From NCBI RefSeq assembly GCF_964204645.1, contig NC_134029.1, positions 16,858,950-16,922,949 on the forward strand: DNA of 64,000 bases, given 5' to 3'. Positions 12,190 to 61,007 of the stretch are shown in pieces. The notes below the pieces were generated by a model. The model saw only the letters and a program-made list of their open reading frames with translations, did not search any database and was not told where the DNA came from. Position numbers and translations under genes: made by a program. The DNA is from Tubulanus polymorphus (taxonomy: Eukaryota; Animalia; Nemertea). How positions within the stretch are numbered: position 1 is the stretch's first letter; each line of letters begins with the position of its first letter.

Positions 12190-12528
12190 CCGACAAAACC
12201 ACGGGCGACAAAACCAAAATTATGAATTGTCGCGGGTTACAAAACCAAAATATTGAATTGTCACGGGCGACAAAACAAAAATAATGAATTGTCGCGGGCG
12301 ATAAAACCAAAATAATGAATTGTCGCGGGCGATAAAACCACAATGATGAATTTCCGCGGGCGTTAAAACCAAAATATTGAATTGTTGCGGGCGATAAAAC
12401 CAAAATAATGAAGTGTCGCGGACGACAAAAACTAACTATTGAATTGTTGCGTGCGACAAAACCAAAATGATGAATTGTCGCGGGCGACAAAACCAAAATA
12501 ATGAATTGTCGCGGGCGACAAAACCAAA
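12190..12528. repeat. 31-bp satellite, left block (GCGGGCGACAAAACCAAAATAATGAATTGTC)
   Basis: About 11 tandem units visible. Confidence 0.95.
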
Positions 12529-14807
12529 CTAGGGGTCCAGGGACACCATGCTCACTTGGGCAGTGGTTTCAAATGCTCAACAATCTAACAATTTCAATAC
12601 ATAACGCCCTCTAGCGACCATATACAAAAACCAATTACCTTGAAACCCACCACTATCATTGAACATGTGAGCAGCTATGATTTTGTAATCGATTGTGATA
12701 ACAAAATATGCCTCGTTACCAATTTAATATGGAAATACTAAGTTATTCTACTATTCAACGACCCCTGGTGACCATATGCAAAACCCAATGACCTTAAAAC
12801 TCACCACAATCGTAGTACATGTCATGAAATACAACTTTGCAATTGATCATAGTAACAAAATATGCCTAGGTACCAATCTAATAAGGAAATACTAAGCCAT
12901 TCTACTATTCAGCGCCCCCTGGTGACTATATGGAATAACTAATGTCCTTAAAAACTCACCACTATCATAGACGATGTCATGAACTACAACTTTGCAATGG
13001 ATCATGGTAACAAACTATGCCTAGGTACCAATCTAATAAGGAAAAACTAAGCTTTTCTACTATTCAACGCCCCCTGGTGACTATATGGAATAACTAATGT
13101 CCTTAAAAACTCACCACAATCATAGACGATGTCATGAACTACAACTTTGCCATTGATCATGGTAACAAAATATGCCTTGGTACAAATATAATATAGCGAT
13201 ACTAAGTTATTGTATTATTCAACGCCCCCTGATGGCCACATACAAAAACCAATGATCTTGAAACTCACCAAAATCATAGAACACGTTATGGGCTACAACT
13301 TTCCAATTGAATATAGTAACACAATATGCTTAGGTATCAATTAATTGTGGAAAAACTTTTTCCCACCTACGAATGAGTACTGATGACACCAAGATGGCCG
13401 CCAATTGCGTCATAATTGGCTGATCAAAAATACCTGTCCCAGGTATAAAACATCCCTCTCTAAAGAATATCCATCAGCAATTGCAATGAGAAATGGCAAA
13501 CCAGTAGGAAGCTACAGGACCTAGAATTCTGGCCAAAATTGACATTTTTCGGCACTAAAAAGGTCATAGGACGGCCATCTTGAGTCAGATCGACCCAATT
13601 TTCTTATGCTGATCGGCCTTTGGTAGATTCAATTATAAACGAAAGATCAAGGTAATTGATCAAATTGTCTTCAAAATTTCCCACGAAAACTTCGAAAATG
13701 TTTAAAAAGTGCTGATTTTGGCAAACAACAATGGCTGCCAGTCGGCCATCTTGAATCTGACAGGGCCAGTTTTTGGGCTGACGATGTGTCTAGGGTAGAT
13801 ACATGTATAAACCAAATATCAAGACATTACCTTGAAGCGTCTTCAAAACTTTAATATGGAAATACTAAGTTATTCTACTATTCAACGCCCCCTGGTGACC
13901 ATATTCAAAACCCAATGACCTTAAAACTCACCACAATCGTAGTACATGTCATGAAATACAACTTTGCAATTGATCACAGTAACAAAATATGCCTAGGTAC
14001 CAATCTAATAAGGAAATACTAAGCCATTCTACTATTCAGCGCCCCCTGGTGACTATATGGAATAACTAATGTCCTTAAAAACTCACCACAATCATAGCCG
14101 ATGTCATGAACTACAACTTTGCAATGGATCGTGGTAACAAACTATGCCTAGGTACCAATCTAATAAGGAAAAACTAAGCTTTTCTACTATTCAACGCCCC
14201 CTGGTGACTATATGGAATAACTAATGTCCTTAAAAACTCACCACAATCATAGACGATTTCATGAACTACAACTTTGCCATTGATCATGGTAACAAAATAT
14301 GCCTTGGTACAAATATAATATAGCGATACTAAGTTATTGTATTATTCAACGCCCCCTGATGGCCACATACAAAAACCAATGACCTTGAAACTGACCAAAA
14401 TCATAGAACACGTTATGGGCTACAACTTTCCAATTGAATATAGTAACACAATATGCTTAGGTATCAATTAATTGTGGAAAAACTTTTTCCCACCTACGAA
14501 TGAGTACTGATGACACCAAGATGGCCGCCAATTGCGTCATAATTGGCTGATCAAAAATACCTGTCCCAGGTATAAAACATCCCTCTCTAAAGCATATCCA
14601 TCAGCAATTGCAATGAGAAATGGCAAACCAGTAGGAAGCTACAGGACCTAGAATTCTGGCCAAAATTGACATTTTTGGGCACTAAAAAGGTCATAGGACG
14701 GCCATCTTGAGTCAGATCGACCCAATTTTCTTATGCTTATGGGCCTTTGGTAGATTCAAATATAAATGAAAGATCAAGGTAATTGATCAAAGCGTCTTCA
14801 AAATTTT
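12529..14807 (-). mobile_element. 5'-truncated copy of the 154-bp-repeat HINE family with a 1127-bp internal tandem duplication, nested in the 31-bp satellite
   Basis: Begins with the reverse complement of the family 3' end (CTAGGGGTCCAGGGACACCATGCTCACTTGGG). 12724-~13680 is repeated from 13851. Confidence 0.85.
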
Positions 14808-16260
14808 CTTCGGGCGACAAAACCAAAATAATGAATTGTCGCGGGCGATAAAACCAAAATTATGAATTGTCTCGTGCGACAAAACCAAAATAATGAATTG
14901 TCGCGGGCAATAAAACCAAAATAATGAATTATCGCGGGCGATAAAACCAAAATAATGAATTGTCTCGTGCGACAAAACCAAAATAATGAATTGTCGCGGG
15001 CAATAAAACCAAAATAATGAATTATCGCGGGTGATAAAACCAAAATATTGAATTGTCGCGGGCGATAAAACCAAAATAATGAATTGTCGCGGGCGACAAA
15101 ACCAAAAAAAAAATTGTCGCGGGCGACAAAAACAAATTATAAAACCAAAATAATGAATTGTCGCGGGCGTCAAAACCAAAAGAAGAATTGTCGCGGGCGA
15201 AAAAACCAAAATAATGAATTGTCGCTGGAGATAAAACCAAAGTAATGAATTGTCGTGGGCGATAAAACCAAAATATTGAATTGTCGTGGGCGACAAAACC
15301 AAACTAATGAATTGTCGCGGGCGACAAAACCAAAAAAAGAATTGTGGGGGCAACAAAACCAAAATAATGAATTGTCGCGGGCGACAAAACCAAAATGGTG
15401 AATTGTCGCGGGCGACAAAACCAAAATAATGAATTGTCGCGGGCGATTAAACCAAAATGATGAATTGTCTCGGGCGACAAAACCAAAGTAATGAATTGTC
15501 GCGGGCGATAAAACCAAAATAATGAATTATCGCGGGCGATAAAACCAAAATAATGAATTATCGCGGGCGACAAAACCAAAATAATGAATTGTCGCGGGCG
15601 ATAAAACCAAAATGATGAATTGTCTCGGGCGACAAAACCAAAATAATGAAATGTCGCGGGCGATAAAACCAAAATAATGAATTATCGCGGGCGATAAAAC
15701 CAAAATATTGAATTGTCGCGGGCGATTAAACCAAAATAATGAATTGTCGCTGGCGACAATACCAAAATATTGAATTGTCGCGGGCGACAAAACCAAAAAA
15801 AAAAAATTGTCGCGGGCGACTAAAACAAAATATAAAACCAAAATAATGAATTGTCGCGGGCGACAAAACCAAAAAGAAGAATTGTCGCGGGCGACAAAAC
15901 CAAAATAATGAATTGTCGCTGGAGACAATACCAAAATATTGAATTGTCGCGGGCGACAAAACCAAAAAAAAAATTGTCGCGGGCGACTAAAACAAAATAT
16001 AAAACCAAAATAATGGAATTGTCGCGGGCAACAAAACCAAAAAGAAGAATTGTCGCGGGTGACAAAACCAAAATAATGAATTGTCGCTGGAGATAAAACC
16101 AAAGTAATGAATTGTCGCAAGCGACAAAACCAAAATATTGAATTTTCGCGGGCGACAAAACCAAATTAATGAATTGTCGCAAGCGATAAAACCAAAATAA
16201 TGAATTGTCGCGGGCGATAAAACCAAAATATTGAATTGTCGCGTGTGACAAAACCAAAAC
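14808..16260. repeat. 31-bp satellite, right block
   Basis: About 46 tandem units of the same consensus; source of the many spurious repetitive ORFs in the track. Confidence 0.95.
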
Positions 16261-25314: not shown

Positions 25315-25494
<180 letters not shown>

Positions 25495-36206: not shown

Positions 36207-37027
36207 GCGAGTTTCAGCACTCTACTCTACTCAGTCAACTATTTACAGGTACGTAGCTATTTTGAATCCAATGCACTAAACTGCTTTTTGGTTACAGTGG
36301 TTTTTCATGACCCTTCAATTGCCGTTTTTCTATAATATAATGGGAGTGGCAGAAAATAAATATTGTGTCATTAAAACCTTCTTTGCTAAATTTCCCATAT
36401 AATCTTTAGTTTGTTTGCACTGCATAGCCTTGATAATCTATCTATGAATACAACTCACCCGAGCATATTATATGGTCCCACTTAATTCCAGATGGAAATT
36501 TCTGATAAAATTTGAAAATTGACTTAGTAATGTAGTTTGGCTTTTATTACAAAATGTTTCATGAGTCAATTGCTATATTGCCCACAATGCGCACTTTTTG
36601 TGCTTAAAATCAATTTAGATTGCAGATAGGGCCTTTCTATTTAATTGCATTCAGTAGAGTTATTAAGATGAATCATCTAGAAATTGTTTTCTAGTGAAAT
36701 AAAGTCTCTGTTGATAAAATTGATAGATTTTCGATCCTCTGATTCAGATTGGCTCTTGGTTATTAGGCCTACGTCATTTGCGTGGAGTATCGAGTGCGAT
36801 ATGCCGTGTTGATACCAACTAGCCATGTGTTGGGATTGTGATGCAATTGGTTTTGAATACAATCAGAAAATAGAGGTTCAGCATAAGTTCATGCAACTGC
36901 GTAGTAAAACTAATGCAGAAAACCTGTTATCCCTGCTTTGCAGCCAAATTGTATTGATCGTTTGTGGAACTATTGAGATTTGATATTGAGAATGACGTAG
37001 TATAAGGGGTTTGTTGATCATTTTTAG

Positions 37028-37224
37028 GAGCAGACGATTTATCAAGACAAGATTTGAAGGATTTTCCAACGGGAGTCTTAACAGACAGTTTCGATGCCGA
37101 TTTATTCTCAGCAGATGAAGCATTAAAAGTCGGTTTAGATCCGTTAGATTTAGAAATGTTGACCGATCCGAGCATTATTGCCGATCCCGCTACCGAGGAT
37201 AGTTTCCGGTTAGATCGGCTGTGA
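37028..37224 (+). CDS. CRTC: CRTC last coding exon, acidic transactivation domain (..DEALKVGLDPLDLEMLTDPSIIADPATEDSFRLDRL*)
   Basis: Diagnostic C-terminus DPATEDSFRLDRL-stop; tttttag acceptor; phase 1. Confidence 0.96.
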
Positions 37225-43750: not shown

Positions 43751-43800
43751 AGATAATCGCCCGAATTTCCCTCCACGGTTTTCGCTCACAAAATCTCATT
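43751..43800 (+). repeat. Displaced left edge of the 5S rDNA spacer
   Basis: AGATAATCGCCCGAATTTCCCTCCACGGTTTTCGCTCACAAAATCTCATT matches the spacer, which resumes exactly at 50561 (TTACTCATACCAG). Confidence 0.9.
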
Positions 43801-44784
43801 TTTAGCCCACTTGGGACTTTAGTCCCAGCGGACTATTGCGTTCACTTTTCGTCCGTCGTCCGTCCGTCCGTAGACGGAATCCAGTTATTTTGGGAAGTTT
43901 TGAAGACGCTTCAAGGTAACGTTTTGATATTTGGGTTACACGTGTATCTACCCTAGACACATCTTCAGCCCAAAAACTGGCCCTGTCAGAATCAAGATGG
44001 CTGACTGGCAGCCATTGTTGTTCGCCAAAATCAGCACTTTTTACACATTTCTGAACTTTTTGAGGGAAATTTTGAAGACGCTTCGATCAATTACCTTGAT
44101 CTTTCGGATATATATGAATCCCCCCCAGGGCCCATCAACGAAACAAAAATTGGGTCGGTCAGACTCAAGATGGCCGTCCTATGACCTTTTTAGTGCCCAA
44201 AAATGTTAATTTTTGCCCGAATTCTGAGTCCTGTAGCTTCCTACTGGTTTACCATTTCTCATTGCAATTTGTGATGGGTATTCTTTGGAAAGGGATGTTT
44301 TATACCTCAGACAGGTATTTTTCATCAGCCAATTATGACGCAATTGGCGGCCATCTTGGTGTCACCAGTACTCATTCGTAAGTGGGAAAAAGTTTTTCCA
44401 CATTATATTGATACCTAAGCGTATTTTGCTACCACAATCAATTAGAAAGTTGTAGCTCATAACGTGTTCTATGATTGTGGTGAGTTTCAAGGTAATTGGA
44501 TTTCGTATATGGCCACCAGGGGGCGTTGAATAATACAATATCTTAGCATTTCTTTATTATATTTGTACCTATGAGTAATAGGGGTAATGGGCTTTCAGGT
44601 CAAAGGTCGAACGGTTGAGCTCATTAAAAAACAAAACATTAAAAGTAATTAAAAACTATAATATATTTTCATAACCGTGTGTATTTTATATTAAAAACTA
44701 AATATTTATTCTAAGATATCAATAATCTAAAAAGCATATTGTATTAAATCAATTGGTCGCGAATTTATTTTTCATTTTCTAGAA

Positions 44785-45003
44785 AAAGTGTGAGTAAAGT
44801 GTGAGTGAAATAATTCATATTTTAACAGATTTCGAGTAAAAATATAAGTAAAATAAATGGATAACTAAAAGAATATAAAAGTGTGAGTAAAGTGTGAGTG
44901 AAATAGTTTATATTTTAAACATATTTCAATATTTATATTTGTATGAGTTAGATTTTTAAACATTAAAGTGTGAGTAAAGTGTGAGTGAAATAATTCATAT
45001 TTA
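44785..45003 (+). repeat. Three subterminal (AAAGTGTGAGT)2-GAAATA boxes, mirrored at ~49628-49846
   Basis: Copies start at 44785, 44878 and 44965. Confidence 0.9.
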
Positions 45004-45065
45004 AAACATTGAATATTTATATTTATATGTGTTGGATTCATTTTAATAAAAGTTTTGTTATTAAA

Positions 45066-45686
45066 ATGAAGACAGAAGAAGAAGAACCCAACTTTAAAAT
45101 CGAAATCAATGAAACCAATAAATCATTTTCACAGTTTTACATTAAAAATTATATTTCAGCAACAAATTTAGTGTCCGCAAGACATTATAAAATCGATAAT
45201 ATTACTATGATTAATCAAATATTATCAAATGAAACATATTTAATTATTGAACTAGTAGATACTTTTGATAATGGCGTTAAAAATCCTAAATTGTTCAATA
45301 CAGTTTTTAATTTTAAAGGAACTTTAGATGAAAACATAATTAATATTCTTAAAACTCCTTTCAATGAAAGAAATGATGATATAATACTTTCAAAAGATTA
45401 CAATGATTTGATTGACTTAAGAATTGAAAGAAGACAATTATATTATTTCAATTTTGATAATAAACAAATTATCTATAATGAGAATTCATCAAATATTGGA
45501 ATTCAATGTGAATTAGATAATGAAAAATCATTTAAAGATATTGCAGTTCAATGTAATTTAGATGATGAATTTAGAAAATTCAATCCTAATGAAAAAGTGC
45601 ATTGTTATTGCGGAGGTAAATATTTAAAATCACATAAATCAAAGCATTATGAAACAATTAAACATAAAAACTGGTGTGAAGAGTAA
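45066..45686 (+). CDS. Palindrome ORF1, 206 aa from the likely ATG; C-terminal CxC-x11-H-x5-H zinc-finger-like motif
   Basis: Long open frame in very AT-rich DNA; TAAAATG start context; VHCYCGGKYLKSHKSKHYETIKH. Confidence 0.7.
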   Translation: MKTEEEEPNFKIEINETNKSFSQFYIKNYISATNLVSARHYKIDNITMINQILSNETYLIIELVDTFDNGVKNPKLFNTVFNFKGTLDENIINILKTPFNERNDDIILSKDYNDLIDLRIERRQLYYFNFDNKQIIYNENSSNIGIQCELDNEKSFKDIAVQCNLDDEFRKFNPNEKVHCYCGGKYLKSHKSKHYETIKHKNWCEE

Positions 45687-45746
45687 CAATTCTACATTAT
45701 AATTATTGAATTGAGTTAAAAGATTTAAATATCTAATAGACTGTTA

Positions 45747-46192
45747 AAATGATAAATTGTTTGCCAGTTGAAATGTTAAATTGTTTGACAGTTGAAATGT
45801 TAAATTGTTTGACAGTTGAAATGTTAAATTGTTTGACAGTTGAAATGTTAAATTGTTTGACAGTTGAAATGATAAATTGTTTGACAGTTGAAATGATAAA
45901 TTGTTTGACAGTTGAAATGATAAATTGTTTGACAGTTGAAATGATAAATTGTTTGACAGTTGAAATGATAAATTGTTTGACAGTTGAAATGATAAATTGT
46001 TTGACAGTTGAAATGATAAATTGTTTGACAGTTGAAATGATAAATTGTTTGACAGTTGAAATGTTAAATTGTTTGACAGTTGAAATGATAAATTGTTTGA
46101 CAGTTGAAATGATAAATTGTTTGACAGTTGAAATGATAAATTGTTTGACAGTTGAAATGATAAATTGTTTGACTGTTGAAATGTTAAATTGT
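45747..46192 (+). repeat. 24-bp tandem array (AATGATAAATTGTTTGACAGTTGA), ~18.5 units, open as (MINCLTVE)n
   Basis: Directly visible; mirrored at ~48439-48884. Confidence 0.95.
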
Positions 46193-46273
46193 TATTCGAT
46201 TTGAAACATATAAAAGTTAAATATTTCTAAAATATCAAATATTTATCAATTTAATAATTTTTTTCTTAAATAA

Positions 46274-46492
46274 ATGGATGGTTTCATTCCAACTGGGAAA
46301 AGTGATTTGAAACATTATTTAGTTGCTGGAGGTTTAATATTAGCAGCATTATATTTTTACTATGAGAATATTTCAAAAGATTTGATGAATGAAAATAATA
46401 AATTGAGTAAAAAATTAAAGAAGTTAAATGGAAACAATCACAGAAATAGAAAGAATAAAAAAGTTAATTTAGAAAATGATTTAGAGGATTAA
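46274..46492 (+). CDS. Palindrome ORF2, 72 aa; single predicted TM helix and basic/coiled tail
   Basis: TAAATG start; hydrophobic YLVAGGLILAALYFYY. Confidence 0.6.
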   Translation: MDGFIPTGKSDLKHYLVAGGLILAALYFYYENISKDLMNENNKLSKKLKKLNGNNHRNRKNKKVNLENDLED

Positions 46493-46530
46493 AACAGCAT
46501 CTTTCAATTTCATATATTTTGACTATAAAA

Positions 46531-46833
46531 ATGAGTGAAAATATATTAAACTTATTACATCTAATATATAAAAATCAACAGAATATTAAATCAATTATTA
46601 TGCTTACAGGTTTATTTTCATTCTCAGTTTATAGTATAAAACAGTTGTTAGAATTCTATGATTGCTGTAAAATTAGATACACTGAATTAATAGAAAATAT
46701 GAATTATATTTCAGATAGATTGAATAATATTAAATGCTGTGAAATATGCAATAAAAGATATAAAAATTTAAAGAGTTTAAAAACTCATAAATATATTCAT
46801 GAACTTGATGAAAAATTATATGAATCAAAATAA
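46531..46833 (+). CDS. Palindrome ORF3, 100 aa; hydrophobic segment plus canonical C2H2 zinc finger
   Basis: AAAAATG start; CEICNKRYKNLKSLKTHKYIH = C-x2-C-x12-H-x3-H. Confidence 0.7.
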   Translation: MSENILNLLHLIYKNQQNIKSIIMLTGLFSFSVYSIKQLLEFYDCCKIRYTELIENMNYISDRLNNIKCCEICNKRYKNLKSLKTHKYIHELDEKLYESK

Positions 46834-47797
46834 GAAATCGACTGTTAAATTAGCTGAAAATATAAAATATATTAGTTGAAATGTATGAAAATGAGTAAAT
46901 TATATTTATGTTAAAAAAGGAAGGTTGAGGTATCAATGTATCAAATACGTATCAAATACGTATTAATGGTATTAAATACCATTAATACGTATTGATGGTA
47001 TTAAATACGTATTAATGGTATTAAATACATATTATGCTTTATTTCTGAAAATGAAGTAACAGAAGTAATTTATGTTTTAATTCATTCAAGTATGATATTT
47101 TAAATTCTTTACATTTGACTAGGATAATACAAGAGTGATATTAGTTAGTTGGCTTATTCAATAAGAGAAACAATGAAATAATACAAGAGTGATACTAACA
47201 GTTAAAGTTATTGAATTTCTTGTTAAATCTATTTGAATTCTTGTTAACCAATAGCGCGAATAGAAATCAAATAGATTTGAATAAAAAAACAATAATTTAA
47301 ATAAGTTAGTATTAGATAAAGTAACTTATTGTTTTTTTATTCAAATCTATTTGATTTCTATTCGCGCTATTGGTTAACAAGAATTGACTAGAATTCAAAT
47401 AGATTTAACAAGAAATTCAATAACTTTAACTGTTAGTATCACTCTTGTATTATTTCATTGTTTCTCTTATTGAATAAGCCAACTAACTAATATCACTCTT
47501 GTATTATCCTAGTCAAATGTAAAGAATTTAAAATATCATACTTGAATGAATTAAAACATAAATTACTTCTGTTACTTCATTTTCAGAAATAAAGCATAAT
47601 ATGTATTTAATACCATTAATACGTATTTAATACCATCAATACGTATTAATGGTATTTAATACCATTAATACATATTTGATACGTATTTGATACATTGATA
47701 CCTCAACCTTCCTTTTTTAACATAAATATAATTTACTCATTTTCATACATTTCAACTAATATATTTTATATTTTCAGCTAATTTAACAGTCGATTTC

Positions 47798-48100
47798 TTA
47801 TTTTGATTCATATAATTTTTCATCAAGTTCATGAATATATTTATGAGTTTTTAAACTCTTTAAATTTCTATATCTTTTATTGCATATTTCACAGCATTTA
47901 ATATTATTCAATCTATCTGAAATATAATTCATATTTTCTATTAATTCAGTGTATCTAATTTTACAGCAATCATAGAATTCTAACAACTGTTTTATACTAT
48001 AAACTGAGAATGAAAATAAACCTGTAAGCATAATAATTGATTTAATATTCTGTTGATTTTTATATATTAGATGTAATAAGTTTAATATATTTTCACTCAT
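47798..48100 (-). CDS. Mirror copy of ORF3 (one K/R difference)
   Basis: Inverted duplicate of 46531-46833. Confidence 0.7.
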   Translation of the reverse strand: MSENILNLLHLIYKNQQNIKSIIMLTGLFSFSVYSIKQLLEFYDCCKIRYTELIENMNYISDRLNNIKCCEICNKRYRNLKSLKTHKYIHELDEKLYESK

Positions 48101-48138
48101 TTTTATAGTCAAAATATATGAAATTGAAAGATGCTGTT

Positions 48139-48357
48139 TTAATCCTCTAAATCATTTTCTAAATTAACTTTTTTATTCTTTCTATTTCTGTGATTGTTTT
48201 CATTTAACTTCTTTAATTTTTTACTCAATTTATTATTTTCATTCATCAAATCTTTTGAAATATTCTCATAGTAAAAATATAATGCTGCTAATATTAAACC
48301 TCCAGCAACTAAATAATGTTTCAAATCACTTTTCCCAGTTGGAATGAAACCATCCAT
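48139..48357 (-). CDS. Mirror copy of ORF2 (one G/E difference)
   Basis: Inverted duplicate of 46274-46492. Confidence 0.6.
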   Translation of the reverse strand: MDGFIPTGKSDLKHYLVAGGLILAALYFYYENISKDLMNENNKLSKKLKKLNENNHRNRKNKKVNLENDLED

Positions 48358-48944
48358 TTATTTAAGAAAAAAATTATTAAATTGATAAATATTTGATATT
48401 TTAGAAATATTTAACTTTTATATGTTTCAAATCGAATAACAATTTAACATTTCAACAGTCAAACAATTTATCATTTCAACTGTCAAACAATTTATCATTT
48501 CAACTGTCAAACAATTTATCATTTCAACTGTCAAACAATTTATCATTTCAACTGTCAAACAATTTAACATTTCAACTGTCAAACAATTTATCATTTCAAC
48601 TGTCAAACAATTTATCATTTCAACTGTCAAACAATTTATCATTTCAACTGTCAAACAATTTATCATTTCAACTGTCAAACAATTTATCATTTCAACTGTC
48701 AAACAATTTATCATTTCAACTGTCAAACAATTTATCATTTCAACTGTCAAACAATTTATCATTTCAACTGTCAAACAATTTAACATTTCAACTGTCAAAC
48801 AATTTAACATTTCAACTGTCAAACAATTTAACATTTCAACTGTCAAACAATTTAACATTTCAACTGTCAAACAATTTATCATTTTAACAGTCTATTAGAT
48901 ATTTAAATCTTTTAACTCAATTCAATAATTATAATGTAGAATAG

Positions 48945-49565
48945 TTACTCTTTACACCAGTTTTTATGTTTAATTGTTTCATAATGCTTTGATTTATGTG
49001 ATTTTAAATATTTACCTCCGCAATAACAATGCACTTTTTCATTAGGATTGAATTTTCTAAATTCATCATCTAAATTACATTGAACTGCAATATCTTTAAA
49101 TGATTTTTCATTATCTAATTCACATTGAATACCAATATTTGATGAATTCTCATTATAGATAATTTGTTTATTATCAAAATTGAAATAATATAATTGTCTT
49201 CTTTCAATTCTTAAGTCAATCAAATCATTGTAATCTTTTGAAAGTATTATATCATCATTTCTTTCATTGAAAGGAGTTTTAAGAATATTAATTATGTTTT
49301 CATCTAAAGTTCCTTTAAAATTAAAAACTGTATTGAACAATTTAGGATTTTTAACGCCATTATCAAAAGTATCTACTAGTTCAATAATTAAATATGTTTC
49401 ATTTGATAATATTTGATTAATCATAGTAATATTATCGATTTTATAATGTCTTGCGGACACTAAATTTGTTGCTGAAATATAATTTTTAATGTAAAACTGT
49501 GAAAATGATTTATTGGTTTCATTGATTTCGATTTTAAAGTTGGGTTCTTCTTCTTCTGTCTTCAT
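48945..49565 (-). CDS. Mirror copy of ORF1 (one E/K difference)
   Basis: Inverted duplicate of 45066-45686. Confidence 0.7.
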   Translation of the reverse strand: MKTEEEEPNFKIEINETNKSFSQFYIKNYISATNLVSARHYKIDNITMINQILSNETYLIIELVDTFDNGVKNPKLFNTVFNFKGTLDENIINILKTPFNERNDDIILSKDYNDLIDLRIERRQLYYFNFDNKQIIYNENSSNIGIQCELDNEKSFKDIAVQCNLDDEFRKFNPNEKVHCYCGGKYLKSHKSKHYETIKHKNWCKE

Positions 49566-51083
49566 TTTAATTACAAAACTTTTATTAAAATGAATCCAAC
49601 ACATATAAATATAAATATTCAATGTTTTAAATATGAATTATTTCACTCACACTTTACTCACACTTTAATGTTTAAAAATCTAACTCATACAAATATAAAT
49701 ATTGAAATATGTTTAAAATATAAACTATTTCACTCACACTTTACTCACACTTTTATATTCTTTTAGTTATCCATTTATTTTACTTATATTTTTACTCGAA
49801 ATCTGTTAAAATATGAATTATTTCACTCACACTTTACTCACACTTTTTCTAGCGAGTAGAAAATGAAAAATAAATTCGCGACCAATTGATTTAATACAAT
49901 ATGCTTTTTAGATTATTGATATCTTAGAATAAATATTTAGTTTTTAATATAAAATACACACGGTTATGAAAATATATTATAGTTTTTAATTACTTTTAAT
50001 GTTTTGTTTTTTAATGAGCTCGACCGTTCGACCTTTGGCCTGAAATCCCATTACCCCTATTACTCCTATGCATATTTTGTAACCACAATCAATTGGAAAG
50101 TTGTAGCTCATGACATCATCTATGATTGTTGTGAGTTTTAAGGACATTAGTTTTTCTATATGGTCACCAGGGGGCGTTGAATAGTAGAATAACTTAGTAT
50201 TTCCTTATTATATTGGTACCTAGGCATACTTTGTTACCATGATCAATTGCAAAGTTGTAGTTCATGACATGTTCTATGATTGTGGTGAGGTTCGAGGTCA
50301 TTGGGTTTTGAATATGGTCACCAGGGGGCGTTGAATAGTAGAATGACTTAGTATTTCCATATTAAATTGGTAACGAGGCATATTTTGTTATCACAATCAA
50401 TTACAAAATCGTAGCTGCTGACATGTTCTATGATTGTGGTGAGTTTCAAGGTCGTTGGTTTTTGTAAATGGTCACCAGGGGGCGTTGAATATTGAAATTG
50501 TTAGATTGTTGAGCATTTGAAACCATTTCCCAAGTGGGCATGGTGTCGCTGGACCCCTAGTTACTCATACCAGTTTCAGTTCGAATAGCCAGTCATAACG
50601 CACAAACACTGGCGCACCGACAAATTCGACCTAACGCACTCTACCGTCAAACGATTGACGACTTTTATTCGGCGCTATAAAGTTGTAGTTGTTTGCAGTA
50701 GCCAAATTTAAGTTGACGAACTATTATTCAAATCGCTTTGGAGATTCTCGAAAATACTGTCTTTGAGTCGATTGGCTATTTCGTGCAGTTGTGACGTCAC
50801 AGATTGAGTTGCTAAGTAGCTGTCGTCGTAGTTTCTACCGTCCTTACACCGGTCGTTGGGCCACAACTCGCAAAAATGGTCGTCGCTTTTCATATACGAA
50901 GATATATGACAATGATTCCTGGTCAAGTTATCGCAATTTGTACGTTGGTGCGAGTAAAGCGTTTTAATTAGGAGGCGGTGAAGCTTAGAAGGTTTGTGCC
51001 GCAAATATGACTTATGAAATATGAAAAATAGACTTATACGATCTAATGAGATATTCAAAAGCGGTACATTTTTGAGTTTTATT

Positions 51084-51203
51084 GTCTACGGCCATACCAC
51101 GTTGAAAGCACCGGTTCTCGTCCGATCACCGGAGTTAAGCAACGTCGGGCCCGGTTAGTACTTGGATGGGTGACCGCCTGGGAATACCGGATGCTGTAGA
51201 CTT
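51084..51203 (+). rRNA. 5S rRNA copy 1
   Basis: GTCTACGGCCATACCACGTTGAAAGCACCGG...GCTGTAGAC followed by a T-run terminator; two variants vs the array consensus. Confidence 0.93.
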
Positions 51204-51879
51204 TTTCACCATTTTCATTAATCTTTTTCAAAAATTCACAATAACACGTTTCAAAAGCCGTTGTGCGTGTTTGTCATGTTTTTCGTCGTCACGAATGAGT
51301 GAAAAGATAATCGCCCGAATTTCCCTCCACGGTTTTCGCTCACAAAATCTCATTTTTACTCATACCAGTTTCAGTTCGAATAGCCAGTCATAACGCACAA
51401 ATACTGGCGCACCGACAAATTCGACCTAACGCATTCTACCGTCAAACGATTGACGACTTTTATTCGGCGCTATAAAGTTCTAGTTGTTTGCAGAAGCCAA
51501 ATTTAAGTGGACGAACTATTATTCAAATCGCATTGGAGATTCACGAAAATACTGTCTTTGAGTCGATTGGCTATTTCGTGCAGTTGTGACGTCACAGATT
51601 GAGTTGCTAAGTAGCTGTCGTCGTAGTTTCGACCGTCCTTACACCGGTCGTTGGGCCACAACTCGCAAAAAATGGTCGTCGCTTTTCATATACGAAGATA
51701 TATGACAATGATTCCTGGTCAAGTTATCGCAATTTGTACGTTGGTGGGAGTAAAGCGTTTTAATTAGGAGGCGGTGAAGCTTAGAAGGTTTGTGCCGCAA
51801 ATATGACTTATGAAATATGAAAAATAGACTAATACGATCTAATGAGATATTCAAAAGCGGTACATTTTTTAGTTTTGTT

Positions 51880-51999
51880 GTCTACGGCCATACCACGTTG
51901 AAAGCACCGGTTCTCGTCCGATCACCGAAGTTAAGCAACGTCGGGCCCGGTTAGTACCTGGATGGGTGTCCGCCTGGGAATACCGGGTGCTGTAGACTT
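51880..51999 (+). rRNA. 5S rRNA copy 2 (variant A)
   Basis: Full length; GTACCTGGATGGGTGTCC variant. Confidence 0.93.
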
Positions 52000-52675
52000 T
52001 TTCACCATTTTCATTAATCTATTTCAAAAATTCACAATAACACGTTTCAAAAGCCGTTGTGCGTGTTTGTCATGTTTTTCGTCATCACGAATGAGTGAAA
52101 AGATAATCGCCCGAATTTCCCTCCACGGTTTTCGCTCATAAAATCTCATTTTTACTCATACCAGTTTCAGTTCGAATAGCCAGTCATAACGCACAAACAC
52201 TGGCGCACCGATAAATTTGACCTAACGCACTCTACCGTCAAACGATTGACGACTTTTATTCGGCGCTATAAAGTTCTAGTTGTTGGCAGTAGCCAAATGT
52301 AAGTGGACGAACTATAATTCAAATCGCTTTGGAGATTCACGAAAATACTGTCTTTGAGTCGATTGGCTATTTCGTGCAGTTGTGACGTCACAGATTGAGT
52401 TGCCAAGTAGCTGTCGTCGTAGTTTCTACCGTCCTTGCACTGGTCGTTGGGCCACAACTCGCAAAAAATGGTCGTCGCTATTTATATACGAAGATATATG
52501 ACAATGATTCCTGGTCAAGTTATCGCAATTTGTACGTTGGTGGGAGTAAAGCGTTTTAATTAGGAGGCGGTGAAGCTTAGAAGGTTTGTGCCGCAAATAT
52601 GACTTATGAAATATGAAAAATAGACTAATACGATCTAATGAGATATTCAAAAGTGGTAAATTTTTGAATTTTGTT

Positions 52676-52795
52676 GTCTACGGCCATACCACGTTGAAAG
52701 CAACGGTTCTCGTCCGATCGCCGAAGTTAAGGAACGTCGGGCCCGGTTAGTACTTGGATGGGTGACCGCCTGGGAATACCGGGTGGTGTAGACTT
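52676..52795 (+). rRNA. 5S rRNA copy 3 (variant B)
   Basis: Full length; GCAACGG, AAGGAAC and GGTGGTG variants. Confidence 0.9.
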
Positions 52796-53473
52796 TTTCA
52801 CCATTTTCATTAATCTATTTCAAAAATTCACAATAACACGTTTCAGAAGTCGTTGTGCGTGCTTGTCATGTTTTTCGTCTTCACGAATGAGTGAAGAGAT
52901 AATCGCCCGAATTTCCCTCCACGGTTTTCGCTCACAAAATCTCATTTTTACTCATACCAGTTTCAGTTCGAATAGCCAGTCATAACGCACAAACACTAGC
53001 GCACCGACAAATTCGACCTAACGCACTCTATAACCGTCAAACGATTGACGACTTTTATTCGGCGCTATAAAGTTCTAGTTGTTTGCAGTAGCCAAATTTA
53101 AGTGGACGAACTATTATTCAAATCGCTTTGGAGATTCACGAAAATACTGTCTTTGAGTCGATTGGCTATTTCGTGCAGTTGTGACGTCACAGATTGAGTT
53201 GCTAAGTAGCTGTCGTCGTAGTTTCTACCGTCCTTACACCGGTCGTTGGGCCACAACTCGCAAAAAATGGTCGTCGCTATTCATATACGAAGATATATGA
53301 CAATGATTCCAGGTCAAGTTATCGCAATTTGTACGTTGGTGGGAGTAAAGCGTTTTAATTAGGAGGCGGTGAAGCTTAGAAGGTTTGTTCCGCAAATATG
53401 ACTTATGAAATATAAAAACAGACTAATACGATCTAATCAGATATTCAAAAGCGGTACATTTTTGAGTTTTTTT

Positions 53474-53586
53474 GTCTACGGCCATACCACGTTGAAAGCA
53501 CCGGTTCTCGTCCAATCACCGTAGTTAACCAACGTCGGGCCCGGTTAGTTGGGTGACCGCATGGGAATACCGGGTGCTGTAGAATT
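53474..53586 (+). pseudogene. 5S rRNA copy 4, probable pseudogene
   Basis: 7-bp deletion (ACTTGGA) in the internal control region plus several substitutions. Confidence 0.85.
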
Positions 53587-54258
53587 TTTCACCATTTTCA
53601 TTCATCTATTTCAAAAATTCACAATAACACGTTTCAAAAGCTGTTGTGCGTGCTTGTCATGTTTTTCGTCAACACGAATGAGTGAAAAGATAATCGCCCG
53701 AATTTCCCTCCACGGTTTTCGCTCACAAAATCTCATTTTTACTCATACCAGCTCAGTTCGAATAGCCATTCATAACGCACAAACACTGGCGCACCGACAA
53801 ATTCGACCTAACGCATTCTACCGTCAAACGATTGACGACTTTTATTCGGCGCTATATAGTTCTAGTTGTTTGCAGTAGCCAAATTTAAGTGGACGAACTA
53901 TTATTCAAATCGCTTTGGAGATTCACGAAAATACTGTCTTTGAGTCGATTGGCTATTTCGTGCAGTTGTGACGTCACAGATTGAGTTGCTAAGTAGCTGT
54001 CGTCGTAGTTTCTACCGTCCTTACACCGGTCGTTGGGCCACAACTCGCAAAAAATGGTCGTCGCTATTCATATACGAAGATATATGACAATGATTCCTGG
54101 TCAAGTTATCGCAATTTGTACGTTGGTGGGAGTAAAGCGTTTTAATTAGGAGGCGGCGAAGCTTAGGTTTGTGCCGCAAATATGACTTATGAAATATGAA
54201 AAATAGACTAATACGATCTAATGAGATATTCAAAAGCGGTACATTTTTGAGTTTTGTT

Positions 54259-54378
54259 GTCTACGCTCATACAACGTTGAAAGCACCGGTTCTCGTCCGA
54301 TCACCGAAGTTAAGCAACGTCGGGCCCGGTTAGTACTTGGATGGGTGACCGCCTGGGAATACCGGGTGCTGTAGACTT
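54259..54378 (+). rRNA. 5S rRNA copy 5 (variant C)
   Basis: Full length; GTCTACGCTCATACAAC 5' variant. Confidence 0.9.
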
Positions 54379-55058
54379 TTTCACCATTTTCATTAATCTT
54401 TTTCAAAAATTCACAATAACACGTTTCAAAAGCCGTTGTGCGTGTTTGTCATGTTTTTCGTCGTCACGAATGAGTGAAAAGATAATCGCCCGAATTTCCC
54501 TCCACGGTTTTCGCTCACAAAATCTCATTTTTACTCATACCAGTTTCAGTTCGAATAGCCAGTCATAACGCACAAACACTAGCGCATCGACAAATTCGAC
54601 CTAACGCACTCTATAACCGTCAAACGATTGACGACTTTTATTCGGCGCTATAAAGTTCTAGTTGTTTGCAGTAGCCAAATTTAAGTGGACGAACTATTAT
54701 TCAAATCGCTTTGGAGATTCACGAAAATACTGTCTTTGAGTCGATTGGCTATTTCGTGCAGATGTGACGTCACAGATTGAGTTGCTAAGTAGCTGTCGTC
54801 GTAGTTTCTACCGTCCTTTCACCGGTCGTTGGGCCACAACTCGCAAAAAAATGGTCGTCGCTATTCATATACGAAGATATATGACAATGATTCCTGGTCA
54901 AGCTATCGCAATTTGTACGTTGGTGGGAGTAAAGCGTTTTAATTAGGAGGCGGTGAAGCTTAGAAGGTTTGTGCCGCAAATATGACTTATGAAATATGAA
55001 AAATAGACTAATACGATCTAATGAGATATTCAAAAGCGGTACATTTTTTAGTTTTGTT

Positions 55059-55178
55059 GTCTACGGCCATACCACGTTGAAAGCACCGGTTCTCGTCCGA
55101 TCACCGAAGTTAAGCAACGTCGGGCCCGGTTAGTACCTGGATGGGTGTCCGCCTGGGAATACCGGGTGCTGTAGACTT
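55059..55178 (+). rRNA. 5S rRNA copy 6 (variant A)
   Basis: Full length. Confidence 0.93.
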
Positions 55179-55851
55179 TTTCACCATTTTCATTAATCTA
55201 TTTCAAAAATTCACAATAACACGTTTCAAAAGCCGTTGTGCGTGTTTGTCATGTTTTTCGTCATCACGAATGAGTGAAAAGATAATCGCCCGAATTTCCC
55301 TCCACGGTTTTCGCTCATAAAATCTCATTTTTACTCATACCAGTTTCAGTTCGAATAGCCAGTCATAACGCACAAACACTGGCGCATCGATAAATTTGAC
55401 CTAACGCACTCTACCGTCAAACGATTGACGACTTTTATTCGGCGCTATAAAGTTCTAGTTGTTTGCAGTAGCCAAATTTAAGTGGACGAACTATAATTCA
55501 AATCGCTTTGGAGATTCACGAAAATACTGTCTTTGAGTCGATTGGCTATTTCGTGCAGTTGTGACGTCACAGATTGAGTTGCCAAGTAGCTGTCGTCGTA
55601 GTTTCTACCGTCCTTGCACTGGTCGTTGGGCCACAACTCGCAAAAAATGGTCGTCGCTATTTATATACGAAGATATATGACAATGATTCCTGGTCAAGTT
55701 ATCGCAATTTGTACGTTGGTGGGAGTAAAGCGTTTTAATTAGGAGGCGGCGAAGCTTAGGTTTGTGCCGCAAATATGACTTATGAAATATGAAAAATAGA
55801 CTAATACGATCTAATGAGATATTCAAAAGCGGTACATTTTTGAGTTTTGTT

Positions 55852-55971
55852 GTCTACGCTCATACAACGTTGAAAGCACCGGTTCTCGTCCGATCACCGA
55901 AGTTAAGCAACGTCGGGCCCGGTTAGTACTTGGATGGGTGACCGCCTGGGAATACCGGGTGCTGTAGACTT
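55852..55971 (+). rRNA. 5S rRNA copy 7 (variant C)
   Basis: Full length. Confidence 0.9.
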
Positions 55972-56650
55972 TTTCACCATTTTCATTAATCTTTTTCAAA
56001 AATTCACAATAACACGTTTCAAAAGCCGTTGTGCGTGTTTGTCATGTTTTTCGTCGTCACGAATGAGTGAAAAGATAATCGCCCGAATTTCCCTCCACGG
56101 TTTTCGCTCACAAAATCTCATTTTTACTCATACCAGTTTCAGTTCGAATAGCCAGTCATAACGCACAAACACTAGCGCATCGACAAATTCGACCTAACGC
56201 ACTCTATAACCGTCAAACGATTGACGACTTTTATTCGGCGCTATAAAGTTCTAGTTGTTTGCAGTAGCCAAATTTAAGTGGACGAACTATTATTCAAATC
56301 GCTTTGGAGATTCACGAAAATACTGTCTTTGAGTCGATTGGCTATTTCGTGCAGATGTGACGTCACAGATTGAGTTGCTAAGTAGCTGTCGTCGTAGTTT
56401 CTACCGTCCTTTCACCGGTCGTTGGGCCACAACTCGCAAAAAATGGTCGTCGCTATTCATATACGAAGACATATGACAATGATTCCTGGTCAAGCTATCG
56501 CAATTTGTACGTTGGTGGGAGTAAAGCGTTTTAATTAGGAGGCGGTGAAGCTTAGAAGGTTTGTGCCGCAAATATGACTTATGAAATATGAAAAATAGAC
56601 TAATACGATCTAATGAGATATTCAAAAGCGGTACATTTTTGAGTTTTGTT

Positions 56651-56770
56651 GTCTACGGCCATACCACGTTGAAAGCACCGGTTCTCGTCCGATCACCGAA
56701 GTTAAGCAACGTCGGGCCCGGTTAGTACCTGGATGGGTGTCCGCCTGGGAATACCGGGTGCTGTAGACTT
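56651..56770 (+). rRNA. 5S rRNA copy 8 (variant A)
   Basis: Full length. Confidence 0.93.
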
Positions 56771-57443
56771 TTTCACCATTTTCATTAATCTATTTCAAAA
56801 ATTCACAATAACACGTTTCAAAAGCCGTTGTGCGTGTTTGTCATGTTTTTCGTCATCACGAATGAGTGAAAAGATAATCGCCCGAATTTCCCTCCACGGT
56901 TTTCGCTCATAAAATCTCATTTTTACTCATACCAGTTTCAGTTCGAATAGCCAGTCATAACGCACAAACACTGGCGCACCGATAAATTTGACCTAACGCA
57001 CTCTACCGTCAAACGATTGACGACTTTTATTCGGCGCTATAAAGTTCTAGTTGTTTGCAGTAGCCAAATTTAAGTGGACGAACTATAATTCAAATCGCTT
57101 TGGAGATTCACGAAAATACTGTCTTTGAGTCGATTGGTTATTTCGTGCAGTTGTGACGTCACAGATTGAGTTGCTAAGTAGCTGTCGTCGTAGTTTCTAC
57201 CGTCCTTACACCGGTCGTTGGGCCACAACTCGCAAAAAATGGTCGTCGCTATTCATATACGAAGATATATGACAATGATTCCTGGTCAAGTTATCGCAAT
57301 TTGTACGTTGGTGGGAGTAAAGCGTTTTAATTAGGAGGCGGCGAAGCTTAGGTTTGTGCCGCAAATATGACTTATGAAATATGAAAAATAGACTAATACG
57401 ATCTAATGAGATATTCAAAAGTGGTACATTTTTGAATTTTGTT

Positions 57444-57563
57444 GTCTACGGCCATACCACGTTGAAAGCAACGGTTCTCGTCCGATCACCGAAGTTAAGG
57501 AACGTCGGGCCCGGTTAGTACTTGGATGGGTGACCGCCTGGGAATACCGGGTGGTGTAGACTT
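57444..57563 (+). rRNA. 5S rRNA copy 9 (variant B)
   Basis: Full length. Confidence 0.9.
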
Positions 57564-58241
57564 TTTCACCATTTTCATTAATCTATTTCAAAAATTCACA
57601 ATAACACGTTTCAGAAGTCGTTGTGCGTGCTTGTCATGTTTTTCGTCTTCACGAATGAGTGAAGAGATAATCGCCCGAATTTCCCTCCACGGTTTTCGCT
57701 CACAAAATCTCATTTTTACTCATACCAGTTTCAGTTCGAATAGCCAGTCATAACGCACAAACACTAGCGCACCGACAAATTCGACCTAACGCACTCTATA
57801 ACCGTCAAACGATTGACGACTTTTATTCGGCGCTATAAAGTTCTAGTTGTTTGCAGTAGCCAAATTTAAGTGGACGAACTATTATTCAAATCGCTTTGGA
57901 GATTTACGAAAATACTGTCTTTGAGTCGATTGGCTATTTCGTGCAGTTGTGACGTCACACATTGAGTTGCTAAGTAGCTGTCGTCGTAGTTTCTACCGTC
58001 CTTACACCGGTCTTTTGGCCACAACTCCCAAAAATGGTCGTCGCATTTCATATACGAAGATATATGACAATGATTCCTGGTCAAGTTATCGCAATTTGTA
58101 CGTTGGTGGGAGTAAAGCGTTTTAATTAGGAGGCGGTGAAGCTTAGAAGGTTTGTGCCGCGAATATGACTTATGAAATATGAAAAATAGACTAATACGAT
58201 CTAATGAGATATTCAAAAGCGGTACATTTTTGAATTTTGTT

Positions 58242-58361
58242 GTCGACGGCCATACCACGTTGAAAGCACCGGTTCTCGTCCGATCACCGAAGTTAAGCAA
58301 CGTCGGGCCCGGTTAGTACTTGGATGGGTGACCGCCTGGGAATACCGGGTGCTGTAGACTT
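58242..58361 (+). rRNA. 5S rRNA copy 10
   Basis: Full length; single T>G at position 4 (GTCGAC). Confidence 0.93.
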
Positions 58362-59040
58362 TTTCACCATTTTCATTAATCTTTTTCAAAAATTCACAAT
58401 AACACGTTTCAAAAGCCGTTGTGCGTGTTTGTCATGTTTTTCGTCGTCACGAATGAGTGAAAAGATAATCGCCCGAATTTCCCTCCACGGTTTTCGCTCA
58501 CAAAATCTCATATTTACTCATACCAGTTTCAGTTCGAATAGCCAGTCATAACGCACAAATACTAGCACACCGACAAATTCGACCTAACGCACTCTATAAC
58601 CGTCAAACGATTGACGACTTTTATTCGGCGCTATAAAGTTCTAGTTGTTTGCAGTAGCCAAATTTAAGTGGACGAACTATTATTCAAATCGCTTTGGAGA
58701 TTCACGAAAATACTGTCTTTGAGTCGATTTGCTATTTCGCGCAGTTGTGACGTCACAGATTGAGTTGCTAAGTAGCTGTCGTCGTAGTTTCTACCGTCCT
58801 TACACCGGTCTTTTGGCCACAACTCGCAAAAAATGGTCGTCGCTTTTCATATACGAAGATATATGACAATGATTCCTGGTCAAGTTATCGCAATTTGTAA
58901 GTTGGTGGGAGTAAAGCGTTTTAATTAGGAGGCGGTGAAGCTTAGAAGGTTTGTGCCGCAAATATGACTTATGAAATATGAAAAATAGACTAATACGATC
59001 TAATGAGATATTCAAAAGCGGTACATTTTTTCGTTTTGTT

Positions 59041-59160
59041 GTCTACGGCCATACCACGTTGAAAGCACCGGTTCTCGTCCGATCACCGAAGTTAAGCAAC
59101 GTCGGGCCCGGTTAGTACTTGGATGGGTGAACGCCTGGGAATACCAGGTGCTGTAGACTT
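59041..59160 (+). rRNA. 5S rRNA copy 11
   Basis: Full length; GGTGAACG and ATACCAGG variants. Confidence 0.92.
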
Positions 59161-61007
59161 TTTCACCATTTTCATTAATCTATTTCTAAAATTCACAATA
59201 ACACGTTTTAAAAGTCGTTGTGCGTGTTTGTCATGTTTTTTGTCGTCACGAATGAGTAAAAAGATAATCGCCCGAATTATCTTGTTTTACAAAATCTCAT
59301 TTTTACTCGTACCAGTTTCAGTTCGAATAGCCCGTCATACCGCACAAACACTGGCGCACCGACAAATTCAACCTGCGCACTCAAACGATTGACGACTTTT
59401 ATTCGGCGCTATTAAGTTCTAGTTGTTTGCAGCAGCTAAATTTAAGTGGATGAACTATTATTCAAGTCTTTTCGAGATTCACGAAAATACTGTCTTTGAG
59501 TCGATTGGCTATTTCGTGCAGTGTGACGTCACAGATTGAGTTGCGAAGTAGCTGTCGTCGTAGTTTCTACCGTCCTTACACCGGTCGTTGGGCCACAACT
59601 CGCAAAAAATGGTCGTCGCTTTTCATATACGAAGAGATATGACAATGTTTCCTGGCCAAGTAATCACATTTGTCCGTTGGTGGGACTTCAGCATTTTAAT
59701 TAGGAGGCAGCGAAGCTTACCGTCAAACGATTGACGTCTTTTATTCGGCGCTATTAAGTTCTAGTTGTTTGCAGCAGCCAAATCTTAGTGGACAAACTAT
59801 TATTCAAATGACTTCGAAGAGGCATTGTGCGTGGGCAGATCCAAGGGCAGGGGGTTTCGGGTTTTGTAACAATCTCGGATTCTTTCGTGCATTTATTTCT
59901 ACTGAGTTAAAACACGTAGCTTGTCTCACTCTAGTATCACTCTAAATCTTCACTGCCAACATCATTAGCGGGCAATAACAGAACTTTCTAACAAACAGAA
60001 CACTCACCAGAGGAGTCGGACTGTCTAGATCAGGTTCGTGTCGCTATATGTCACAGAGAAAAACGGCGTAGTCTGCAGCATACATGTACTCATAAATCGT
60101 ACTCACTGAATACGTAGTTCCCTCTGTAGAAGCAATAGTTATAGGGTTTTATATGTATGGTATTGGAAAAGATAGTGTATGTGTGCAGTGTGCACAATAG
60201 CGCACGCTAGATGTGTGCTGGTGCGCACACCGAAGGCAAATGGCTCGAATTACAAGGAGGGAGTATGTTGATAAGAAAGAACAGCATTGAGTAACTATAT
60301 CTAAAATGTAAGGACTTTTAAGGGATGGTTAGTGTAGTCCAGGAGGGAGTAGAATGGTAGTAGCAGGGATAAGATATACCAAAAAGGGTGATGATAGAGG
60401 TGGGCGAGGTCATGGTAAAGGAATGTAAAGAATGTACATATTAGTATATAAGTCTAAGGTTTTTGGTTCAGGGAGGGAACGAAAGAGAGTAAAGGCTGGC
60501 TTATGTCGACAAGCAACGCGACGACTCCTACCGACGCAACTGAGAGCACCCGCGATCGCAGCCCAGCTTATGTCGACTCCGCTCCGCTTCGCAGCAATTG
60601 AGCCCGACTATCGGGATACGAGATCCTCCCAGTTGCTTCCCTGCTTATGCCGGTTACGATTACTGGCAACTGCAATGGCTCAGATGGTCACGTGATAAGC
60701 ATTTTGAGAATAAATTTGATCTATTTTGAATTATTGGGAAATACATTTCTATTAAAAGAAGCTATTTCTTTAAGATCATTATCTTTCTGATTCTGTCTGA
60801 ATTTAATGAGCTAGCGACATCATATAAAGATGGCCGTTCACACCATAATTCTACCAACTTTGCTTCTAGATCTTCGATCCAGTCATCTGCCGTGCTGAAA
60901 CTTTAGTTGACGTTTCGAAATACTTGAATTTGAAAGTTTATGACTAATTACGAATGACGCTAACTAGCGGTCATAATTTGTACTATGTATATGCGGTCTC
61001 TTATTGG

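Follow-up and report, generated by a model that had tools for sequence, protein, structure and literature searches.

Defective genomes of the snap-back or copy-back type are known from parvoviruses and other viruses, linear replicons with one hairpin end are likewise known, and non-autonomous Polintons, which reportedly go back to Kapitonov and Jurka in 2006 and to Repbase, are said to depend on a helper, to share the ends and the target-site duplication (TSD) length of Polintons and to keep a unique interior. Here we analyse a 64-kb stretch of the nemertean Tubulanus polymorphus (contig NC_134029.1, positions 16,858,950 to 16,922,949 of the forward strand; hereafter the window, whose own numbering is used below and in which both the element and further copies of it were sought). 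It contains a 5.5-kb element made of two inverted arms and a 13-nt loop, and we argue that this element is probably a non-autonomous Polinton/Maverick satellite consisting wholly of terminal inverted repeat (TIR), copied and inserted by the enzymes of a helper, likely via a snap-back hairpin.

According to the sources that are cited here by accession or preprint number, Mavericks have inward-pointing genes and, between the TIR and the core modules, diverse accessory open reading frames (ORFs), and vertebrate Mavericks have TIRs of 46-1447 bp when intact, TSDs of 6 bp, and (AGT)2//(ACT)2 as the commonest end motif (PMC8097293). For Polintons it has been proposed that an excised single strand folds into a racket through its TIRs, is copied by protein priming and then integrates (PMC4196379). 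In addition, virophages, transpovirons and some polintons share a C2H2 zinc ribbon, which occurs by itself or in fusion with GIY-YIG (PMC3671162).

The element resembles Polintons/Mavericks in its duplication, if this is read as 6 bp, and in its AGT-type ends (5 of 6 positions), TIRs, intronless centre-facing genes and small ORFs of accessory type (PMC8097293, PMC3014272, PMC6431247). It differs from them in size (5.5 kb versus 12.7-24.6 kb for Mavericks), in the absence of pPolB, integrase, ATPase, protease and capsid genes, and in its 2.7-kb arms, which meet at the 13-nt loop and leave no unique interior. It is not an autonomous Polinton, because the enzyme genes are absent and both its size and its arm length lie outside the range. 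With non-autonomous Polintons it would share helper-dependence, ends and TSD length, but the unique interior that these are said to keep is absent. Snap-back and copy-back genomes are similar in having one end duplicated head-to-head round a small loop and a single strand that self-anneals, whereas the present element is integrated with a TSD, and its helper and extrachromosomal form are putative. Transpovirons and the ribbon genes of virophages and polintons offer a further parallel (small linear helper-dependent DNA, a C2H2 zinc-ribbon gene, ribbon relatives fused to GIY-YIG); however, a helicase gene and an association with mimiviruses mark the transpovirons, whereas the element is chromosomal and fully palindromic, and the motif likeness is one of architecture (PMC3671162).

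Structure of the palindrome and its insertion site

The element, its ends and its target have the following structure.

44574-50064: whole element, 5491 bp, inverted arms and central loop
44574-47308, plus strand: left arm, 2735 bp
47322-50064, minus strand: right arm, 2743 bp, in which the array and ORF1 to ORF3 recur as mirror copies
47309-47321: loop, 13 nt between the arms
47236-47394, no strand: imperfect hairpin tip, with a 9-nt bulge on the left, a 10-nt bulge on the right and the loop 47309-47321
44574-44620, plus strand: terminal module, GC 49%, starting AGTAAT and holding 3 of the 11 arm-to-arm substitutions
44568-44573, plus strand: left copy of the TSD CCTATG (6-bp reading), the empty site being collinear with other copies of the host repeat
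50065-50070, plus strand: right copy of the TSD CCTATG
43799-50562, no strand: host repeat split by the insertion, otherwise about 1.27 kb long, with 154-bp internal units

An earlier note on this stretch had described two inverted arms of about 2.74 kb round a 13-nt loop, very AT-rich DNA, AGT...ACT ends, a CCTATG duplication and a host repeat continuing on both sides, the last as an argument against a read fold-back artefact, and all of this is borne out by the measured structure. A repeat search returned a 2484-nt core of the arms with 99% complementarity, and the GC content of the element is 22.1% versus 39.9% and 37.7% in the flanks. As a single strand the centre forms a hairpin with two bulges (z score -27 versus 200 shuffles), as is expected of any such palindrome. 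No second copy of the element was found within the window.

CCTATG is present on both sides of the element, and a given 6-bp direct match has a chance probability of about 3e-4. When the element and one CCTATG are removed, the empty site aligns gap-free across the junction, with 88% identity over 353 bp, to 12994-13345 and to 14121-14472. Other copies of the host repeat lie near 12.5-14.8 kb and 29.9-31.3 kb, and since the copies are 83-90% identical, the target is far older than the insertion. Moreover, only 29 of 100 flank positions are complementary, which is about the chance level, so the mirror stops at the ends of the element. Because the flanks are unmirrored and removal restores the host repeat, a fold-back artefact is unlikely, and the palindrome appears, from its sequence context, to be a real and clean insertion.

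In the host repeat, short inverted repeats occupy sub-terminal positions (43805-43815 and 50529-50539); it also has a GTCC microsatellite, the 154-bp tandem units and a CTAG end. We take these features to resemble those of Helentron-associated non-autonomous elements. Tandem arrays of a 31-bp unit at 12202-12528 (about 10 copies) and 14811-16259 (over 40 copies) adjoin inverted copies of the host repeat.

Ends of the element and length of the duplication

The ends AGTAAT//ATTACT equal the Maverick motif (AGT)2//(ACT)2, as set from vertebrates, at 5 of 6 positions. The ends of Sola elements are GAG, and the caveat raised earlier, that the junctions can also be read as G...C ends with a 4-bp TSD (CTAT), holds, as this reading leaves an identical empty site. 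Because the 6-bp and the 4-bp readings share that site, this locus alone cannot separate them. With random targets, 26% of elements with a 6-bp TSD are also readable as having a 4-bp one, and the C...G coincidence (0.038) is required under both readings alike. Under a GAG-ended 4-bp reading, the following four bases would have to match TAGT at 3 of 4 positions by chance, about 0.05 (hand arithmetic, equal base frequencies). The 4-bp reading thus needs a chance hexamer, and the Polinton reading of the ends is therefore favoured roughly 10-20-fold, but it is not proven.

Differences between the two arms

At 99.6% identity (0.4% difference), the arms are set apart by 11 substitutions and by three indels, which measure 7, 10 and 9 nt. 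Global alignment gave 12 substitutions and 4 indels, one of each being the loop and hence subtracted, so that the count agrees with the dozen or so substitutions and three indels spotted by eye. The differences are uneven: the outer 50 bp hold 3 of the 11 substitutions (P 0.0009) and the inner 75 bp hold 2 of the 3 indels (P 0.002), both windows having been picked after inspection of the data. This distribution fits repeated propagation, or homogenisation from arm to arm, better than one recent copy-back followed by uniform decay; an interior kept alike by copying between the arms, with the ends and the tip escaping homogenisation, would be the better fit. An imperfect hairpin that was already present and seeded the fold-back would also explain the differences clustered at the tip.

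Each of the indels (49853-49859, 47385-47394 and 47291-47299) is a short direct duplication (3, 6 and 5 bp, respectively) around a 4-nt filler. In the 10-nt indel the filler inside the 6-bp duplication starts like the element's own end; it is possibly the footprint of a lost nested insertion, and the resemblance may be due to chance.

Genes and repeats carried by the arms

Three compact, intronless, inward-pointing ORFs are open in both arms and are accompanied by several non-coding repeats.

44785-44986, plus strand: non-coding sub-terminal repeats with units of about 90 bp, in which the 11-mer AAAGTGTGAGT occurs as three pairs, candidate protein-binding sites
45027-45686, plus strand: ORF1, 219 amino acids (206 from the second ATG at 45066), with an orphan N-terminal part and a C-terminal zinc ribbon
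45739-46193, plus strand: tandem array of 19 copies of a 24-bp unit, across which a frame of 151 amino acids (45749-46204), of doubtful coding status, is free of stops
46274-46492, plus strand: ORF2, 72 amino acids, with a hydrophobic stretch at residues 16-34 and a basic tail
46531-46833, plus strand: ORF3, 100 amino acids, with a hydrophobic stretch, a helical middle and a weak C2H2 finger
46955-46993, no strand: perfect internal palindrome, 39 bp (19-bp arms, 1-nt spacer), amid short tandem units
47798-48100 (ORF3), 48139-48357 (ORF2), 48438-48892 (array) and 48945-49604 (ORF1), minus strand: mirror copies in the right arm, all open

Among 2000 first-order Markov simulations of the arm minus the 24-bp array, none attained 206 amino acids, 0.7% attained 100 and 10% attained 72; therefore ORF1 and ORF3 are longer than expected by chance, and the length of ORF2 alone is within chance. 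The longest stop-to-stop frames of the arm have 230, 160, 154, 152 and 117 amino acids, and no Pfam family was found above cut-off for any ORF of the element. With no frame above 230 amino acids and no such family, the element encodes no transposase, integrase or polymerase, which agrees with the first description of 3-4 compact inward intronless ORFs per arm without these enzymes. The 151-amino-acid frame is simply the array and was not accepted as a gene, since three of the six frames of a 24-bp unit lack stops.

The C-terminus of ORF1 is a zinc ribbon of the form CxCG..Y..H..T.KH. A search of 1.84 billion representative sequences gave 13 hits with E values up to 0.001 and none below 1e-10, all of which cover the ribbon; 3 of the 13 have a GIY-YIG domain above the Pfam cut-off, and those looked up (10 of 13) are unnamed or "hypothetical". 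Identity of this ribbon with that of virophages and polintons is to be read as a lead. ORF2 as a whole is an orphan, as are the N-terminal 180 residues of ORF1. No relative of ORF1 was found by word search (174 candidates) or in viral contigs, its hits in the Atlas score at most 0.85 and serve as leads, and its predicted structure (predicted local distance difference test, pLDDT, 34) was too poor for searching. Three candidate matches were set aside: a profile built on the ribbon hits scores ORF1 strongly and is circular (ORF3 gave no match to it), the only two hits of ORF1 to PDB sequences have an E value of 0.35 and are due to chance, and the sole match of ORF2, over 22 residues, is of low complexity.

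Of 4 candidates, a single unnamed protein proved related to ORF3 (69% identity, with 86% positives, across 87 residues), from which it follows that related elements exist elsewhere and that the frame has been kept. No ORF3 relative was found in metagenome or viral contigs, and no longer fused form among 948 candidates, which is weak evidence. The predicted structure of ORF3 (pLDDT 61) is all helix with the finger unformed and was likewise too poor for searching. Exact copies of 8 element proteins were not found in the protein collection, and comparison of the element proteins with PHROGs gave weak matches only. By analogy, ORF1 to ORF3 are likely accessory genes like those between Maverick TIRs and core modules, and one possible role of the zinc-ribbon protein is to bind repeats of the element itself.

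The order of the variants in the 24-bp array is identical in both arms. Units of 9-11 bp at 46930-47034, and in the mirror region 47597-47695, build the 39-bp palindrome in the non-coding inner part of the arm, and this palindrome could be an origin or a protein-binding site. The AT-rich arm has 9 AATAAA sites.

Proposed origin and propagation of the element

We propose that a released single strand would fold over its full length into a 2.7-kb hairpin, the open end of which would be a ready double-stranded origin. A protein-primed polymerase of the helper could copy round the 13-nt loop and so restore a double-stranded palindrome with two functional ends, which the helper's retroviral-like integrase would insert, making the 6-bp duplication. 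The first palindrome likely came about when a short inverted repeat, which would now be the imperfect tip, primed fold-back synthesis. By analogy, the element may be regarded as the limiting case of the Polinton racket intermediate, namely a racket without a head.

The Polinton/Maverick link made in the earlier note stands in part: the end motif, which agrees at 5 of 6 positions, the duplication in its 6-bp reading, the intronless ORFs and the GIY-YIG-related ribbon speak for it, and a direct match to a Polinton gene was not obtained. Several results weigh against a Polinton/Maverick satellite. None of the ORFs matched any named Polinton protein, and the likeness of the ORF1 ribbon to the virophage/polinton ribbon is one of motif and architecture. 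In the viral loci fetched with one ribbon hit (n=3) only the nuclease part matched and the motif was absent, and a second ribbon hit used as query (2 of the 13 hits were used) fetched 0 loci. The end hexamer is imperfect, and the 2.7-kb arms exceed the vertebrate Maverick TIRs of 46-1447 bp. The 6 coding differences between the arms (2 silent, 4 replacement) do not point to selection, but so small a number permits no test. Finally, a scan with the terminal 17-18-mers gave 0 matches in viral contigs and 59 in metagenome contigs, none extending beyond 24 nt; the latter were rejected as chance matches, because none extends and none encodes a relative.

Three other explanations were weighed. Near-perfect multi-kb palindromes are a recognised class of artefact, which would here come from read fold-back or from collapsed inverted copies, but the mirror stops precisely where the element does (29 of 100 positions complementary outside), the element has a 6-bp duplication in a restorable host repeat, and the arms differ by 7-10-nt non-homopolymer indels in addition to the 11 substitutions, so that we find an artefact hardly credible. 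A one-off Maverick accident is rather unlikely and would mean that a single copy-back defective molecule was inserted once, or that fold-back synthesis repaired an integrated Maverick after the loss of its interior, which gives a Polinton-derived sequence without a self-propagating family. The 99.6% identity and the shared order of array variants are as after one recent copy, the arm resembles a TIR with accessory region (PMC8097293), and the window holds no second copy; however, the differences gather at the outer end and at the tip instead of being spread uniformly, and 64 kb say little on copy number.

A Sola-type or other cut-and-paste foldback element with G...C ends and the TSD CTAT, with captured small genes and a DDD transposase elsewhere in the genome, is less probable still. 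Sub-terminal repeats are common in foldback elements, and this feature, like the long inverted arms, is shared by the element. Sola elements have 4-bp TSDs, a length of 2-9 kb and TIRs of 11-1124 bp (PMC10741241), and the possible 4-bp duplication with its identical empty site would suit them. On the other hand, the (AGT)2-like hexamer would have to be chance (about 0.05), the 2.7-kb arms are more than twice as long as the longest reported Sola TIR, the element lacks a DDD transposase, and its gene content is virus-like, not host-captured.

If the element is indeed a Polinton/Maverick satellite, it could, on a more far-reaching and in our judgement doubtful view, represent a hairpin-satellite class of animal Mavericks. 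The replicon would be linear and 2.7 kb long, primed by protein at one end and closed by a hairpin at the other, and its chromosomal form would be the unfolded mirror dimer. With conserved zinc-finger and membrane-type genes of its own, it would out-replicate its helper like a defective-interfering genome and possibly damp it through hairpin RNA. No spacer-less palindromic derivative of a Polinton came up in full-text literature searches or in passages of PMC3014272, PMC6431247, PMC4455052, PMC8097293, PMC3671162, PMC4196379, PMC5199201, PMC10294476, PMC10741241 and bioRxiv 10.1101/2024.01.15.575659, although non-autonomous Polintons catalogued in Repbase may include such forms. The replication of Polintons via a folded single strand is a model drawn from sequences only (PMC4196379), of which an element made entirely of inverted repeat is the extreme prediction, and the bulges and the loop are unique markers by which the hairpin intermediate would be directly detectable. 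Should such elements turn out to form families, then animal Mavericks are themselves parasitised, and the few genes that a satellite retains indicate which functions it has to carry along. Multi-kb palindromes are unstable and poorly assembled, and the class may therefore have been missed in short-read genomes.

Genomic surroundings

The element lies about 7.3 kb beyond the stop codon of a CRTC/TORC gene and about 0.5 kb ahead of a 5S ribosomal DNA array. The exons of this intron-rich coactivator gene span about 10600-37224 on the plus strand; its last exon (37018-37224) matches Pfam TORC_C with an E value of 2.6e-12 (1 of the 3 pieces given matched), and a (CAG)33 tract at 25327-25426 stands in an open glutamine-coding frame. 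The 5S array (50576-59246) comprises 11 units of about 796 bp with one 5S gene each, and the spread of the gene scores, from 85 to 117 bits, suggests variant or decaying copies.

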